From the NCBI RefSeq assembly GCF_963921235.1, contig NC_086097.1, positions 87,484,001-87,548,000 on the forward strand: a stretch of 64,000 bases of DNA. Direction: 5' to 3'. The number at the start of each line of letters is the position of its first letter. Within the stretch, counting starts at the first letter, position 1. Origin of the DNA: Mobula hypostoma. Taxonomy: Eukaryota. Positions 11,458-52,840 of this stretch are shown piece by piece. The notes under the pieces are model-generated. The model saw only the letters and a program-made list of their open reading frames with translations, had not been told where the DNA came from and did not search any database. The translations under genes and the position numbers were made by a program.

Positions 11458-11811
11458 GTATTGATAATGTTTGTGCGAGCACTTCTCTCCCAGGTGGGTG
11501 TGCAATATTCAGTGACTGAGAAACATGGTGCTAGGCTAGATGTTCATAACACTGACTGGTTAGCACCCCATCTGGTTCTCGCTACCTTCCTGATCATGGT
11601 CGTTCTGCATTTTAGTTTATTTGCAATATTCTGAAGGTGGGTCTTGTATGAGAGAGTTCAATCTAGTGTGACTTCTAAGTACTTTGGGTCTAGGTCATTG
11701 GGTAGCTGTTTGTCATTTAGTTTGATATTAAGTTTAAATTTGGTTAGTTGGTTATCCTGATGAAATATGGAAGTTACTGTTTTGTTGACATTCATATTTA
11801 TGTACCACTTT

Positions 11812-11945
11812 AGGCAGGCGGTGCCAAGGCAGCCAGCGAGAACAAGCTGGAGGAGAGACTGTATTCGGTGCTGTCGCAAGATCGAAGAAGATGGAGGTGC
11901 ATAGCCGCCAACCCTGGATTCGGGACAGCACCCACTGACTGACTG
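11812..11945 (+). mobile_element. 5'-truncated copy of the chimeric RTE-tailed element carrying a ZFTRAF1/CYHR1 fragment
   Basis: Encodes GGAKAASENKLEERLYSVL-SQDRRRWR; (ctga)n tail; perfect 8-bp TSD ACCACTTT (11804-11811 and 11946-11953); about 90% identical to the 3' end of the copy at 41943-42489. Confidence 0.88.
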
Positions 11946-13339
11946 ACCACTTTGAAAAGTACTCCAAACCCAGCTCCCAAATGGACAGACTTGCGTCTGC
12001 CCCTACTGGGCCACACTTCATCATGAATCAAGGCAACTTTTCAATCAATTTTGCTGTCAAGGCCAATGTACCATTTGCCTTCCAAATCGCCTGATGTACC
12101 TGTACATTAACTTGCAGTCATTTGTGAAGAAGGACAGCTCAGTTTCTTGGAACACCAATGCTTTTCAGTATCTGACTATCTGAGAAAAACTTTTGAGTTT
12201 TTCTCATTTTTCCACATAATATTCCATCTGCTACGTCTTCACAATTCACTTATATGGATTTCCCTTGGGAGTTTCTCTGTATCTTAGTCATGTCACATCT
12301 TAATATCATCAGTAAACATAGATATTTTGCTTTTTTAAATCATTTATATATGAACAGCAGAACGCCCACCCGTCACAGCCTTACAAACCTAAAAGACATA
12401 GTTTTCCTGTTCTCTGTCATCTCTTAACCATTCCTCAGTCTACACCAGTATTACTGTGAGCCTTACATCATGTAGTTTTGTTTTATAATCTCTTACCAAA
12501 GGTGTTCTGAAAGCCAGGCTCACCATTTCCCCAATCACATCTGAGGTAAGAAAAGGAGGAAAAGAAGAGGAACAGCCGAAGGAAAAGCATGGTAGAAAGC
12601 GATGGCAAGAGGGTTTCTCTGGCAAATCTGTGGTGAATCGCCTTTCAGTGCAACTGAGAACCAGAGGATCAAACCAAAGAATCACATTGGGTTAGTAAGT
12701 AACAAATCTTGAACATCATCTCAACTTGAACTGATAAATAGCAAGTTAAATTGACAGCATACAAAGTAATTCCCAACTACATGAAGAAGCCTATTCCCCC
12801 TTGCCAAAACTGAGAGCCCCGTATCTATTCAGCTGGTTACAGGCTCAGAAACCTAACTGATTTGCTAAACGTGATCTTCTTTTCATGAATCAATGTAGAC
12901 TCTGCCCAATCCTATTATTATTTTCTAAGTGCCCTGCCACTGCTTCCTTAATAATAGATTTTATCATTTTAAGAGCTGTGACTGACAGCCAGAAAATAGG
13001 ATTAGTCTGGATAGCTTTTACTTTTGCTTGGCATGGTACAATGGGCAGACCGACCTCTTGTTGTGCCATAAATTTCTATGACAACACGCATATGAGGCTT
13101 CTAAAAGTTGTGGCTGAGGCAGTGTTGATGGTGGCTGCCAAAATTCGCCTGATTCTTAGATAATCGCAGCAGACTGGGAGATAATTGAATGTTATATTGG
13201 TATTTAAGAAGAGGGAGAAAAGAATTGGGGAATCAAATGCTAATTACCCTGGCATCTGTTATCTGAAAAATAGAGAGATGTCACTCCTGATGTGGTGACA
13301 GGGTACTAGGAAAATGCTTCCACCCTCAAGGTAGTCCTG

Positions 13340-40952: not shown

Positions 40953-41942
40953 AAAAAAAAAAGTGGTATTTCTCATGAGTTCAGATTGTATTTTACATTT
41001 AACATAACGTGCAGTAATCAATATTGTAAATTAAAGGAATACATCAGTTAATTTTATTAGTGGCAAGGCCCACATGTACTAATGAGGCAGCACAGGAGAC
41101 TGAAGAGAGATTTAATTGTATATAAATGTGAGATGCCTGTAATGGAACAGGGCCTATAATCCCTATGCAGAGGGATTAATATCTTCAGGAAAAGTTAATT
41201 GACTGAAGAATTTGTGAAAAGTTGAAGAAAATTTTTATTTTTTCAATCAGTGATCTAAGTGTGTACAGGTATCCCCACCTTTGAAAGATTATACTGTTAT
41301 CAATCTACATACACTTCAAGGACTAGTTTACTTCATTGTTCAGTCTCCATGACAGGGTTCAGCTGTCAATTATGACTGTTTAAGTAGTGGGTTCTCCCCC
41401 CACTCCCACCAAGCATAAGATAAGTTAAAACTTTATTTATCCCAAAGGAAATTGTTGTTGCAAAGTTGCTCAGTCAGAAATATATACTTTAAAATACAAA
41501 ATGTAAGTATTGAGGTACGAAAAAAATATACAAAATGTACATTTGAAAAGTAATATTGCAAAATACAGATGTGCCATGAGACCATATACTTATATAGTTA
41601 AGGAGGAGGAGTTGTAGAGTATTATAGCCACAGGGAGAAAGGATCTCCTGTGGCTTTCAGTGGTGCACCTCGATGAAATCAGTCTGTTACTAAAAGCTGA
41701 TCCTCTGTTTGTCCAGTATGTCATGGAGGGAGTGAAAGGGATTGTCCATAATGCTCTGCAACTTCTGCAGCATCCTCCTGTCAGACACAACCACCAGGAA
41801 ATCCAGTTCTACTCCCAGATCGGAACTAGCCTTCCTGATGAGCTTATTGATCTTCTTGGCATCAGCTGCTCTCACCCTGCTGCCCCACTACAGTGTGGAA
41901 TAGAATGCCGGCTACTACTGAGTGGTATATCATCTGCAGCAT

Positions 41943-42489
41943 TGTCAGTCAGTGGGTGCCATCCTGAATCCGGGGTTGGCGTCTATGTACCTCCATCTTC
42001 TTCGATCTTGCGACAGCACTGAGAACAGCCTCTCCTCCAGTTTGTTCTCACTGGCCGCCTTGGCACCGCCCACCGCCACCCCCGCCAAACTCGAGTCCGA
42101 GGCCGTATCGGCCTCCAGCCGCGGCTGCTTCTTTGAGCTCAGCCTTTCCTTAGGTGGAGGCCTTGGGCAGGTCCAGGCACACGGTGCAGCGCCCAATTTC
42201 ATCATGTCTCTTCTAACTAGGTGCATAGCATACGATTCGTAGATACATGGTGAGGCTTTAATCTCTTCCATGGAAGATAGCCATTAGCTCACAAGGAGCT
42301 CATCCGCTCTTTGTCCGGTCTTGTATTTTTTAGTCCTCCTGTGTGTCCTCACACCCTCCTCACCAGACTAAGTCCAGTGGGGGAGCCGCCCCAAGTCGCT
42401 GACCACTCGACCATAGCCCCCGGCTGAGCGCCTGCCCCCTGCTGAATTTCTCTGAGCGTCCGGCGCCCGATCGAAGACCAAACCACTAT
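41943..42489 (-). mobile_element. Chimeric non-autonomous RTE-tailed retroelement carrying a host exon fragment
   Basis: Splits Rex1 between CSTM and LQM; TSD AC(T/A)ATGC; (ctga)n tail; RTE-like C-terminus MMKL(A)QDRRRWRYIDANPGFRMAPTD interrupted by host sequence. Confidence 0.85.
42013..42190 (-). pseudogene. ZFTRAF1: Circularly permuted fragment of the first coding exon of ZFTRAF1/CYHR1
   Basis: 42190-42156 encodes [11 protein letters not shown]; 42157-42013 encodes PPKERL...ENKLEERLFSVL. Recalled vertebrate CYHR1 reads PPKKR...[26 protein letters not shown]. The two ends rejoin seamlessly as GTG CTG T^GC TGC ACC. Confidence 0.85.
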
Positions 42490-43584
42490 GCATAGTACTG
42501 CAGACGTTGAATAACTCGAGCCTCCTCTGGAAGTACAGTCGGCTCTGTCCCTTGTACAGAGCCCCTATATTTTCAGTCTAGTCCAGTTTATTGTCCAGGT
42601 GAGTTCCCAGGTACTTTTAGTCCTGGACAACTTCCACGTCTGTTCCCTTGTTGGAGATGGTAATGCATGGTGTTTTCATCTTCTTGTCCTGGAATCCACC
42701 ACCAACTCCTTTGTCTCATGATGTTGAGCTGCAAGCGATTCAACAAAGTTGCTCAGTACTCTCCTGTCTTAGCCTCTTGTCCCTGGTTGATGCAGCCCAG
42801 AACTGCCGAATTGTCTGAAAACTTCTACAGGCGGCAGGACTCCTAGTCGAAGTGGGGGGGATAGGACAGTCCCCTGAGGTGACCCTGTGCTACTAACCAC
42901 AGTTTCTGATACACGGCTCTGCATCTCACAAACAGTGACCGCCTGAACCCGTAGTCTGTAATCCAGGTCACTAGTGGAGCATCCGTCTGCATCTCTGTGA
43001 GTTTACTCCCTAGTAAAGCAGGTTGTATGGTGTTAAAAGCACTGGATAACTCAAAGAACATGACTCTTACAGTGCTGTCTGGCTCATCCAAATGGGTGTA
43101 AGCCTGTTGAAGCAGGAGCGGTGTCCTTGACTCCAAAATGTGATTGCTAAGCAAACTGCGGTGGTGAGGGGGGAGGTGGCCCAGTGAAAGGTGTGTGTCA
43201 GGACCAGTTTTTCTAATAATTTCATAACATGAGGTCAGTGCTCTGGTCTGTAGTCACTGGGCGTGGTGGGATATGTCGTCTTGGGTAATGGAACTAAGCA
43301 GAATGGTTTCCACAGCACTGGGACTCTCTCCAAGCTTAGATTAAAGATATGTTGAAAGACTGCACCCAGCTGAGTAGCACACACCTTAAGTACGCTTCGG
43401 CTGATGCCATCTGGACCCACTGCCTTGCTTAGGTGAAGTCTGCTGAACTCTCTCCTTACCTGCTCAGCAGTGATGGGATGAGATGTTTCCAACTAATAAT
43501 GTAGTTTTAAATAGTTTATTTTATCTTTAGTGATGCACATTTAATTTGGACAAAATAATTCTTGACTGAGACTTAAGAATTTCT

Positions 43585-50535: not shown

Positions 50536-50537
50536 TA

Positions 50538-51015
50538 TGAGGGGTGATTGATAAGTTCGTGGCCTAAGGTAGAAGGGAGTCAATTTTAGAAAACCTAGCA
50601 CATTTATTTTTCCTACATTTACGCACTTAGTCCAGCGGTCATGGAGCATACGGATCCCTTCTTTGTAGAAGTCGGCGTCTTGGACCTCCAGAAAGTGGTC
50701 CACAGCAGGGGTGATCGATAAGTTCGTGGCCTAAGGTAGAAGGAGATGAGTTATTAACTTCAAACTTTTCTGCATTTTCACTCAAAGAGTTGAACTGCAC
50801 GTGCATGTAACGAGCTGTATAACACATCTTCTACCTTAGGCCACGAAGTTATCAATCGCCCCTGCTGTGGACCACTTCTACAAAGAAGGGATCCATATGC
50901 TCCATGACCGCTGGACTAAGTGTGTACATGTAGGAGGAGACTATGTTGAAAAATAAATGTTTTCTAAAATTGACTCCTTCTACCCTTAGGCCACAAACTT
51001 ATCAATCACCCTTCA
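50538..51015. mobile_element. Mariner (irritans-like) fold-back MITE with four TIRs
   Basis: TA-flanked; TIR tgaggggtgattgataagttcgtggcctaaggtagaagg; transposase C-terminus FYKEGIxMLHDRWTKCVxVG(GDYVEK*) in both arms. Confidence 0.9.
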
Positions 51016-52840
51016 TATGTGAGATTCTCTAAGGCAGCTTGACAGGGTGGATATTTTCATTAGTGAAAGTCATGAACAAGGGGACACAGCTGTGAAATAT
51101 GGTTATCATTGGTTCTGTTCCTTAGAGCAGAGAAGACAAAGTTTAACCAACTGCTTGTGAGAGGGACCCACAAATGGATATTTCTATTGGGTGCAGAAAT
51201 AGTATGAAGGTATGAACTGAGGATTAACATTAGAAGCCAAAAATTAAGGGCAATTTTCCTGTACAGCCGTGGTTAGAATACACAAAGCAATAAAGCTGCT
51301 AAAGTACTTTTATTAAGAGGGTGGCAATCAAAGCGTGGAACAAATATGTTAAAGTGAGAGTGAAGGAAGGAGAGATGGTGGTATTTGTCTGAAGGATACT
51401 GGGTTGAAAGAAAACACAAATTGGTGGAAAACATGTTTTTGGAGCCATCATTTGCAAAATCAGCTGTATAATTCATGCAACAGATCTTGTTCTTTCCACA
51501 AGTGGGATTTTTTTTCTGCCTTGGGTTTACATTTTTAATGCTTTGCTTTTCACCCAAGGAGCTAAAGAGTTTGAAACTTGGCGGGGGGGGGGGGTTGGTG
51601 GTTTGAATCACTGATTGAATCTAAATTTCTAGTGATCTAGTTTAAGTTTGCATACATATGCTAAGAAATCTGTTCATAATGGGTGGTAGTACATGCACCA
51701 TGTAGTACTGGTAGCACTGAAATTCTTTTCCTTCAGGGGACACAGGGTGCAACCTTAAGCGTGATTAATCAGGAGTAAATTACTTGAAAGCTTTGTGTTG
51801 AGTTTTTATTTCTATGCAAGTAGTATCAGATATCAATCAAGAGCAAAATAACCCATTTACAAACAAATCAACAGAATGATGTTGTACTGCTCTTACTGTC
51901 TCTTGTAAAGATATGCTTTGTTGAAACTTCTAAAAGAGTTTCTGACCAATTGCTGTAAATGTAATATTGTTTGTCTTGCATTATTTGGCCTCTTGGATGA
52001 GGTTTTTGAATTTCATACCATGATCTTTTTCTCCCCCCCCGCCCCGCCATCCTTCATCACTGTTTTCAGCAGAGACCAGAGTTTATTGTTTCAACCTCAA
52101 TTTAATTACCTGAAGTGAGATAGGATAGAATATCATTGTGTAGTATGGTTGGTATGGTTAAAAAGGGCAATAGAAATTAATATCTTTTCTGGGCATGGCT
52201 AATTCAGCAATAGTTAGTGTACATTTGCTTGCCTATACTTTTTCAGACAGCTGCCATGAATAGTGCATAATTGGAATATTTTGAAAAGTTGGGTATTAAA
52301 GTTCTTTGTTAGAACTTGTGTAATTTTGATGTGTGAAATGTAAAGCTCTTGTATCATTAAAAGAACTGTTGTACTTGAACAAGAAAATCCAGGCTGGTGG
52401 CATGGTGCAGACCTGAAGGTGTGCCACATTAACAGGTTTATCTTTTTGAATTGCCATTGAATTGATAATATGACTGTGCTTAGACTGGGTGATAAAGATT
52501 CCAAAGTACTACCTCAAAGAAGAATATTGCAGTTAGCCTAACCACTTTGCTATTTTTAAGAATCTCATGTAGGCAAAATAGTTGTCATTTTTTTTGCTCT
52601 CTGAGTCCCTCTCCACGACTCTTATTTATACTTTATTGTCGCCAAACAATTGATACTAGAACGCACAATCATCATAGCGATATTTGATTCTGCGCTTCCC
52701 GCTCCCTGGATTACAAATCTATAACCTTTTGACCTGGAGAAATTAGTGAATGATGACGGTTGATCTGTCCAATATCTTGTGTCATGGGAACATACAATCA
52801 TTTAACTTTATCCCTTCACCTAAATCATTAAAATAAGGTA

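Follow-up and report, generated by a model that had tools for sequence, protein, structure and literature searches.

The insertion described here is one copy of a non-autonomous retroposon of ~570 nt, in which the two ends of an RTE-type LINE enclose a permuted piece of a host exon; on an account that we consider just probable, these parts were joined by template jumps of a reverse transcriptase (RT) and the product was mobilised in trans by the RTE. It was found in a window of 64,000 nt (the whole stretch of DNA that was analysed, G000:C1:87484001-87548000, in a 3.48-Gb assembly). From 5′ to 3′, the element consists of RTE 5′UTR and ORF start (326 nt), the permuted host piece, which stands in place of ~2.9 kb of the parent RTE ORF, and the last ~67 nt of the RTE. 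Full-length copies of ~570 nt share a common, defined 5′ start, located ~28 nt upstream of the position at which the match of the window copy begins. Circular permutation of the host piece, a fold-back in the head and a cluster of A>G changes within it were all missed in the first-pass annotation of the window.

The window copy is inserted on the minus strand (41946-42489) and disrupts a decayed RT-bearing LINE (about 41500-43500, minus strand, with approximate bounds). The target-site duplication (TSD) consists of a 7-bp 5′ copy (42490-42496) and a 3′ copy (41939-41945), both on the minus strand and identified from the sequence. The first-pass annotation described an insertion that splits a Rex1 RT; the insertion, its TSD (with one mismatch) and its (CTGA)n tail stand, but the Rex1 label is weak, the Pfam matches of the interrupted LINE (RVT_1, E=0.015; ALKBH8_N, E=0.019) both falling under the cut-off. 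This LINE is presumably Rex1-like. Following five unassigned nucleotides (42485-42489), the copy begins with the 5′ arm of the fold-back (42454-42484, minus), which folding and head alignment identify as a copy, in inverted orientation, of the head of the element itself; this arm carries a ~21-nt internal deletion in the window copy and is 56 nt long in full-length copies. The hairpin loop and 3′ arm (42390-42453, minus) represent the RTE 5′ start with a 98-nt deletion in the UTR, as judged from the family majority against 14 parent RTE copies, and account for 12 out of the family's 15 A>G changes. The remaining RTE 5′UTR and first ORF codons (42191-42389, minus) are 86% identical to parent copy L071 (219 nt, 42203-42414) and differ from the parent RTE by deletions of 7 nt and 10 nt.

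The host piece follows in two parts, both on the minus strand. Piece B (40 nt, 42151-42190), from the downstream part of the host exon, is identical to the host at 35/35 nt over 42156-42190, while its final 5 nt, with one fixed difference, are of ambiguous origin. Piece A (138 nt, 42013-42150), which lies upstream of B in the gene, is 90% identical to the host in the window copy. The copy ends with the RTE 3′ end (41946-42012, minus), which comprises the last ~21 codons, the stop and the (CTGA)n tail and is 90% identical to parent copy L062. An open frame of 112 codons runs through head, host piece and tail (41948-42283, minus), without sign of selection. Elsewhere in the window, nested inverted repeats (50536-51017) with arms of 50-62 nt that are 88-95% complementary resemble a small palindromic DNA element.

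The second copy that the first-pass annotation reported within the 64 kb is genuine. It is 5′-truncated, consists of the end of piece A and the tail (~11813-11945, plus strand) and is flanked by an 8-bp TSD (11804-11811 and 11946-11953). The repeat family also extends beyond these two copies, as had been supposed: a DNA search of the assembly gave 1,466 candidates, and the 40 of these that were scored all match over most of the query, one being the window copy and the other 39 having 87-91% identity; one short extra piece was matched as well. Copy number is estimated at ~1,200 (95% 890-1,800), or one per ~2.9 Mb, on the basis of contigs C1 and C2, where 21/54 junction matches were also found by the tail probe; this figure probably underestimates worn copies. 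The expectation of a very high genomic copy number thus comes down to about 10^3, and at this density the probability of finding another copy in the same 64 kb is ~0.02. A chimeric tail probe gave 471 matches, and the tails of the parent RTE number roughly 450-500.

All three junctions are fixed in the alignment columns across 69 copies, and the family descends from a single founder. Every one of 30 position-ordered tail matches carries host sequence, and at least 12 of them extend to the 5′ 38 nt. The copies bear the marks of LINE-type insertion: a TSD of at least 7 bp accompanies 16/30 copies, compared with 16/870 mismatched flank pairs, and 5′ truncation places their starts anywhere from position 1 to 447. 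Outside CpGs, the 69 unique copies that remain of 83 loci after removal of 14 duplicate loci diverge by 2.8% from the column majority (range 1.3-4.4%). Tails of the parent RTE diverge by 2.6% (n=23, from 30 loci minus three chimeric, two short and two with an insert), which points to a single burst coeval with the parent; the 69-copy sample includes no very young copy. Divergence of the host piece (2.5-2.8%) resembles that of the other parts of the element (2.3-3.4%) and so gives no sign of selection; this piece has most likely been carried along as a neutral passenger.

The autonomous RTE that shares both ends with the element, whose existence the first-pass annotation had anticipated, is present in the assembly. 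A tail probe from which the last base of the insert had been removed gave 190 matches, and 27 of the 30 loci fetched are non-chimeric; these share the 67 nt and the (CTGA)n tail with the element and carry at least the adjoining RTE bases. One parent copy is near full-length (L062:2900-6124, ~3.2 kb) with endonuclease and RT, and ~30 parent copies (38 candidates) retain the 5′ ORF region. The Pfam match is strong for RVT_1 (E=2e-21) and weak for Exo_endo_phos (E=0.015), and the closest homologues are single proteins of ~1,010 aa with both APE and RT domains. The partner LINE has the RTE architecture, namely a single ORF of ~1,000 aa with APE endonuclease and RT in ~3.2 kb. From this architecture and from its C-terminal motifs, we take it to belong to the RTE clade. 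The element itself has no coding capacity for RT or endonuclease, ~2.9 kb of the parent ORF being missing, and its movement is likely due to the partner RTE acting in trans.

Several observations concern the parent lineage itself. Full-length parent copies form two groups with common sequence upstream of the 5′ start (L071, L080 and L091; L074, L087 and L090), as expected for 5′ transduction from few source loci. Two copies at different loci share an insert of ~340 nt that is 98% identical (L064:5610-5951, minus-strand numbering, and L065:5648-5988) and sits in both at a distance of 60 nt from the tail region, on its upstream side; by their sequence, they appear to represent a second RTE sub-lineage that spread while carrying foreign sequence close to the 3′ end. 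The 7-nt deletion of the family also occurs in 2/30 parent copies, L078 and L094, the latter also having the family's C>T beside the junction, and these two probably belong to the sub-lineage nearest the founder. Finally, two APE-RT proteins of 1,010 aa (P0001 and P0002) are 73-75% identical to the parent RT (query L063:779-1285, minus), the next matches reaching 53%; they may be close relatives or products of horizontal transfer.

The identification of a host gene fragment is borne out: the source of the piece is a first exon on G000:C5 that is single-copy and lies in a CpG island. This exon comprises an ATG, 109 codons and a GT donor. A probe in gene order across both halves has one match only (G000:C5:228091027), and the upstream part of the exon is single-copy in the assembly. 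The host segment in the element is 178 nt long (G000:C5:228091006-228091183, minus) and is opened between 228091046 and 228091045, its last 40 nt standing first and its first 138 nt second. Pieces B and A together therefore form an exact circular permutation, with 0 overlap and 0 gap at the opening. The permuted junction occurs exactly 373 times in the assembly, and the alignment of 69 copies has no insertion column at it. Only 3/178 positions of the family majority differ from the host gene, and the circle junction is 3 nt away from one of these. The piece is in sense orientation, wholly exonic, and ends 4 nt before the splice donor; its GC content is 0.69-0.71 and its CpG o/e 0.8-1.25. As read, the circle junction shows 0 bp microhomology. 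If an extra deletion of 2 nt is assumed, it reads either as donor plus cryptic AG or as the closure of a 180-nt circle at a microhomology of 3 bp; these 2 nt are present in 0/69 copies.

The gene is presumably ZFTRAF1/CYHR1, as in the first-pass annotation, and the exon presumably its exon 1. A protein search with the insert peptide gave nothing at E<=1 and a Pfam search with the exon peptide gave no family; exon 2 was not found within 9.6 kb downstream. At least half of the words of the host exon occur in 14 sequencing runs of organisms A and B, but the shares are small (0.02-0.06) and carry no weight as evidence. Downstream of the host exon, presumably within the intron, lies an open frame of 295 aa for the C-terminal part of a LINE RT (L068:4251-5135, minus), presumably CR1-like.

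Capture of the host piece by RT template jumping has, in our assessment, an even chance of being correct. The sense orientation, the proximity to the donor, the blunt joins to the RTE, which lack microhomology, and the LINE lifestyle of the element favour an RNA route, as does the exclusively exonic content. The fold-back in the head is in itself an earlier rearrangement of template-switch type that was already fixed in the founder lineage, and double template jumps by a LINE RT have been reported (PMC2104539). Against this, an RNA loop and a DNA circle fit the present evidence alike, and the circle junction is off a clean splice pair: back-splicing needs both the 2-nt deletion and a cryptic acceptor in a first exon.

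The alternative to be weighed most seriously, which we regard as possible though below even chances, is that the host piece was a mononucleosome-sized DNA circle (microDNA or eccDNA), cut once and end-joined into an ORF-less RTE copy that became the founder. Reintegration of eccDNA is defined by the order efghij-abcd with its parts exactly abutting (PMC7188851), and a single cut yields one full round with no added assumption. The length of 178 nt (180 with the assumed 2-nt deletion) compares well with the ~180 bp of germline eccDNA (PMC10581685) and favours the DNA route; germline eccDNA is also described as enriched at 5′ gene regions (PMC10581685), in keeping with a CpG-island first exon, and a GC content of ~0.70 with the CpG o/e given above fits microDNA (PMC9527254). 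However, capture would have to coincide with the event that deleted 2.9 kb of the RTE, the sense orientation and the end 4 nt from the donor would become matters of chance, and the junction in its plain reading lacks microhomology.

The head of the element consists of RTE 5′UTR and fold-back, and these account for the 5′ ~300 bp that had been annotated as showing no obvious tRNA head and no RT. The lack of a tRNA head agrees with ARAGORN (0/6 element loci); Rfam searches of six element and five parent loci gave chance-level matches only, none near the gathering score, and no ribozyme or tRNA. The first 56 nt repeat the 5′UTR of the element itself in inverted orientation, the junction of the 98-nt deletion included. 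Since both hairpin arms carry this junction, the UTR deletion precedes the fold-back. A natural copy (L022) folds to a long stem (z=-7.3, 0/100 shuffles), and the stem consists of 53 pairs, 13 of which are G.T.

Comparison of the family majority with 14 parent heads (16/30 parent loci, which have no long 5′ head, being left out) shows that a parental A has become G at 15/20 of the A's in the arms, with 3/5 in the 5′ arm and 12/15 in the 3′ arm; the yardstick is the present-day parent copies, not the true ancestor. The same change affects 0/3 A's in the loop and 0/55 in the rest of the head (arms vs. rest, p=7e-12), and T>C occurs at 0/19 positions (p=8e-7), changes of C at 0/39 and changes of G at 2/44. 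At the 15 3′-arm sites, 11-14 of the 14 parent copies have A and the remainder mostly gaps. The G is carried per site by 17/23 to 57/57 family copies, and the changes are fixed across the family except for decay at newly made CpGs. Each arm alters only its own A's, so that a run of four A's became G's and the T's facing it were kept. Depletion of a 5′-neighbouring G at changed sites is in the expected direction but not significant (5/8 vs. 10/11, p=0.26). Two further hairpin differences, at family positions 42 (T>G) and 89 (A>T), lie at opposed positions of the stem. Both would follow from a single A>T that preceded the fold-back and a later A>G, which would bring the edited sites to 16.

Dense A>G changes of this kind arise when long fold-back RNA undergoes A-to-I editing and inosine is read as G (Carmi et al., 2011, PMC3197674), and the cluster is very probably the result of ADAR hyper-editing of the founder RNA, fixed in DNA before amplification. 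It is unlikely that the changes arose by ordinary mutation or by GC-biased conversion between the arms, or that they were inherited from a G-rich RTE lineage outside the sample. The founder does differ from the sampled parents elsewhere (4/193 positions in the rest of the head, and three deletions), and its true ancestor is absent from the assembly; but changes in DNA, whether by mutation or conversion, are either strand-symmetric or restore Watson-Crick pairs, and are therefore disfavoured by a strand-specific A>G pattern in which the facing T's are intact. The 13 G.T pairs of the stem, the restriction of changes to each arm's own A's and the lack of T>C all stand against them, and the effect ends where the stem ends. 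A probe for an unedited precursor gave two matches, both ordinary family copies, and a G-form head was seen in 0/30 RTE 5′ loci.

For the host piece, tandem duplication or some other route of capture is improbable as a class. The tandem variant holds that the piece came, without circle or loop, from a duplicated exon segment (ABAB) in an ancestral allele or a paralogue. It contains the B-A junction by construction, but is by itself very improbable, as it needs a ~1-in-100 coincidence to yield exactly one unit with no overlap or gap, and no tandem copy is present in the gene, while the junction in host order and the upstream part of the exon each occur once.

The joins to the RTE differ from the structure first proposed for them. 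Removal of the host piece and two further nucleotides had been held to restore MMKLAQDRRRWR as part of an RTE C-terminus. In the parent RTE, however, the tail is preceded by ...EARKRAQDRRRW (EARKR); the MMNL(G) codons are those of the parent ORF start, ~2.9 kb upstream of the tail, after the 10-nt deletion, and the two "extra" nucleotides are RTE bases. Both joins of the element to the RTE are without microhomology. Two probes of the assembly for an insert-less empty site gave 0 matches, and among 479 head matches all 100 listed continue as host piece and none as RTE; the sister copies lacking the insert that had been expected were thus not recovered. What survives of the original proposal is that an RTE derivative acquired a host piece and kept retrotransposing, but the piece splits no contiguous C-terminus and instead replaces ~2.9 kb. 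A short RTE remnant with a contiguous C-terminus that took up the host piece as a simple insertion, as flanking codons in frame across the insert might suggest, has next to no chance of being the source, the junction flanks deriving from opposite ends of the parent ORF and the model being rejected by the 0 empty-site matches with both probes. A reading of MMNLG as the N-terminus of the endonuclease was discarded, the corresponding probe giving 0 matches and the motif lying, in the parent, ~55 codons upstream of that domain.

Under capture by template jumping, the following series of events may be envisaged. An RTE copy would first lose 98 nt of its 5′UTR, and snap-back of the cDNA would then add the 56-nt inverted arm. 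The transcript, with a duplex of ~53 bp, would be hyper-edited by ADAR and its inosines copied as G. At any point in this order, RT would copy 67 nt of RTE tail, jump to the host RNA, go once round a 178-nt loop and jump to the RTE 5′ part; the loop might be an opened circular RNA, or might reflect a jump back on the same molecule, with RT stalling at its own RNA:cDNA hybrid. The product, which would retain the UTR and tail needed by the RTE protein, would finally amplify to ~1,200 copies. Surviving intermediates in the assembly number 0 for insert-less sisters, 0 for unedited precursors and 0/30 for G-form RTE heads. A broader and rather doubtful proposal is that the family is an amplified double fossil, in which two short-lived molecules of the germline were combined, a nucleosome-sized circle derived from a CpG-island exon and a hairpin RNA that was hyper-edited by ADAR and copied back to DNA, and in which editing turned a long perfect duplex into a weaker, G.U-rich one, so that the founder escaped dsRNA surveillance and outgrew its autonomous parent. 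If this were true, RNA editing by the host would have created a successful retroposon.

Small circles and edited RNAs are as a rule known as short-lived molecules, and few cases bear on whether they enter germline DNA and are then inherited; in the present family, ~1,200 copies retain one such founder down to the single base. With a permutation that goes exactly once round, the capture of a circle or loop can be put to the test in a non-LTR element. By means of the hairpin, it can likewise be tested directly whether retrotransposition is able to fix A-to-I editing and whether this alters the success of an element. In practical terms, the family has dispersed coding sequence of a conserved gene to ~1,200 places, and will interfere with the mapping of reads to that gene and with its annotation.

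Among described elements, the closest in organisation are the bipartite, ORF-absent, non-autonomous RTE LINEs, such as Bov-A, WALLSI3, RTESINE2 and MAR4_MD (Kojima, 2018, PMC5786205), the main text of which report does not mention sharks or skates. Like these, the present family has RTE 5′ and 3′ ends and a microsatellite tail, lacks an ORF and a small-RNA head, and is, by inference in our case, moved by an autonomous partner. Unlike them, it has a permuted piece of a host coding exon that fills the deletion, and its head is a fold-back with an A>G cluster. The addition of the 178-nt host module and the 56-nt fold-back makes it a variant rather than a plain member of the bipartite RTE group. 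It differs from a canonical SINE in that its head is an RTE 5′UTR and not derived from tRNA, 7SL or 5S. Searches of the literature, with Dfam and Repbase outside their range, found no description of the family, none of any retroposon that arose from an edited RNA, and no paper that links ZFTRAF1, searched under that name, with a retrotransposon.

The host piece invites comparison with two further classes. The circRNA-derived pseudogenes, of which 33 mouse circRFWD2 copies in LTR-rich flanks are an example (Dong et al., 2016, PMC4897178), also comprise many non-colinear copies of host exons linked to a retroelement. However, they have back-splice junctions between exons, whereas the junction here is intra-exonic, 4 nt short of the donor, and closes exactly one round; compared with the circRFWD2 pseudogenes, the element involved is a non-LTR RTE and there are ~30 times more copies. 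The eccDNA-mediated duplications (Takahashi and Innan, 2020, PMC7188851) share the efghij-abcd order and the exact abutment, but are segmental duplications of >1 kb, in contrast to a 178-nt module of an amplifying retroposon. The family fits neither definition cleanly.

Chimeras formed by template switching of LINEs, including U6-L1 and mRNA-L1 (Law and Burns, bioRxiv 10.1101/2025.02.02.635956) and a tripartite chimera (PMC2104539), resemble the element in that they combine cellular RNA and LINE sequence in one insertion. They are, as described, mostly one-off and colinear, whereas the present structure is LINE-host-LINE with a permuted middle and became the founder of a family. The head, with its dense A>G changes in a long fold-back duplex, is similar to ADAR ultra-edited repeat RNAs; these were seen in ESTs against unedited DNA (PMC3197674), whereas the changes reported here are fixed in genomic DNA and inherited by the whole family.
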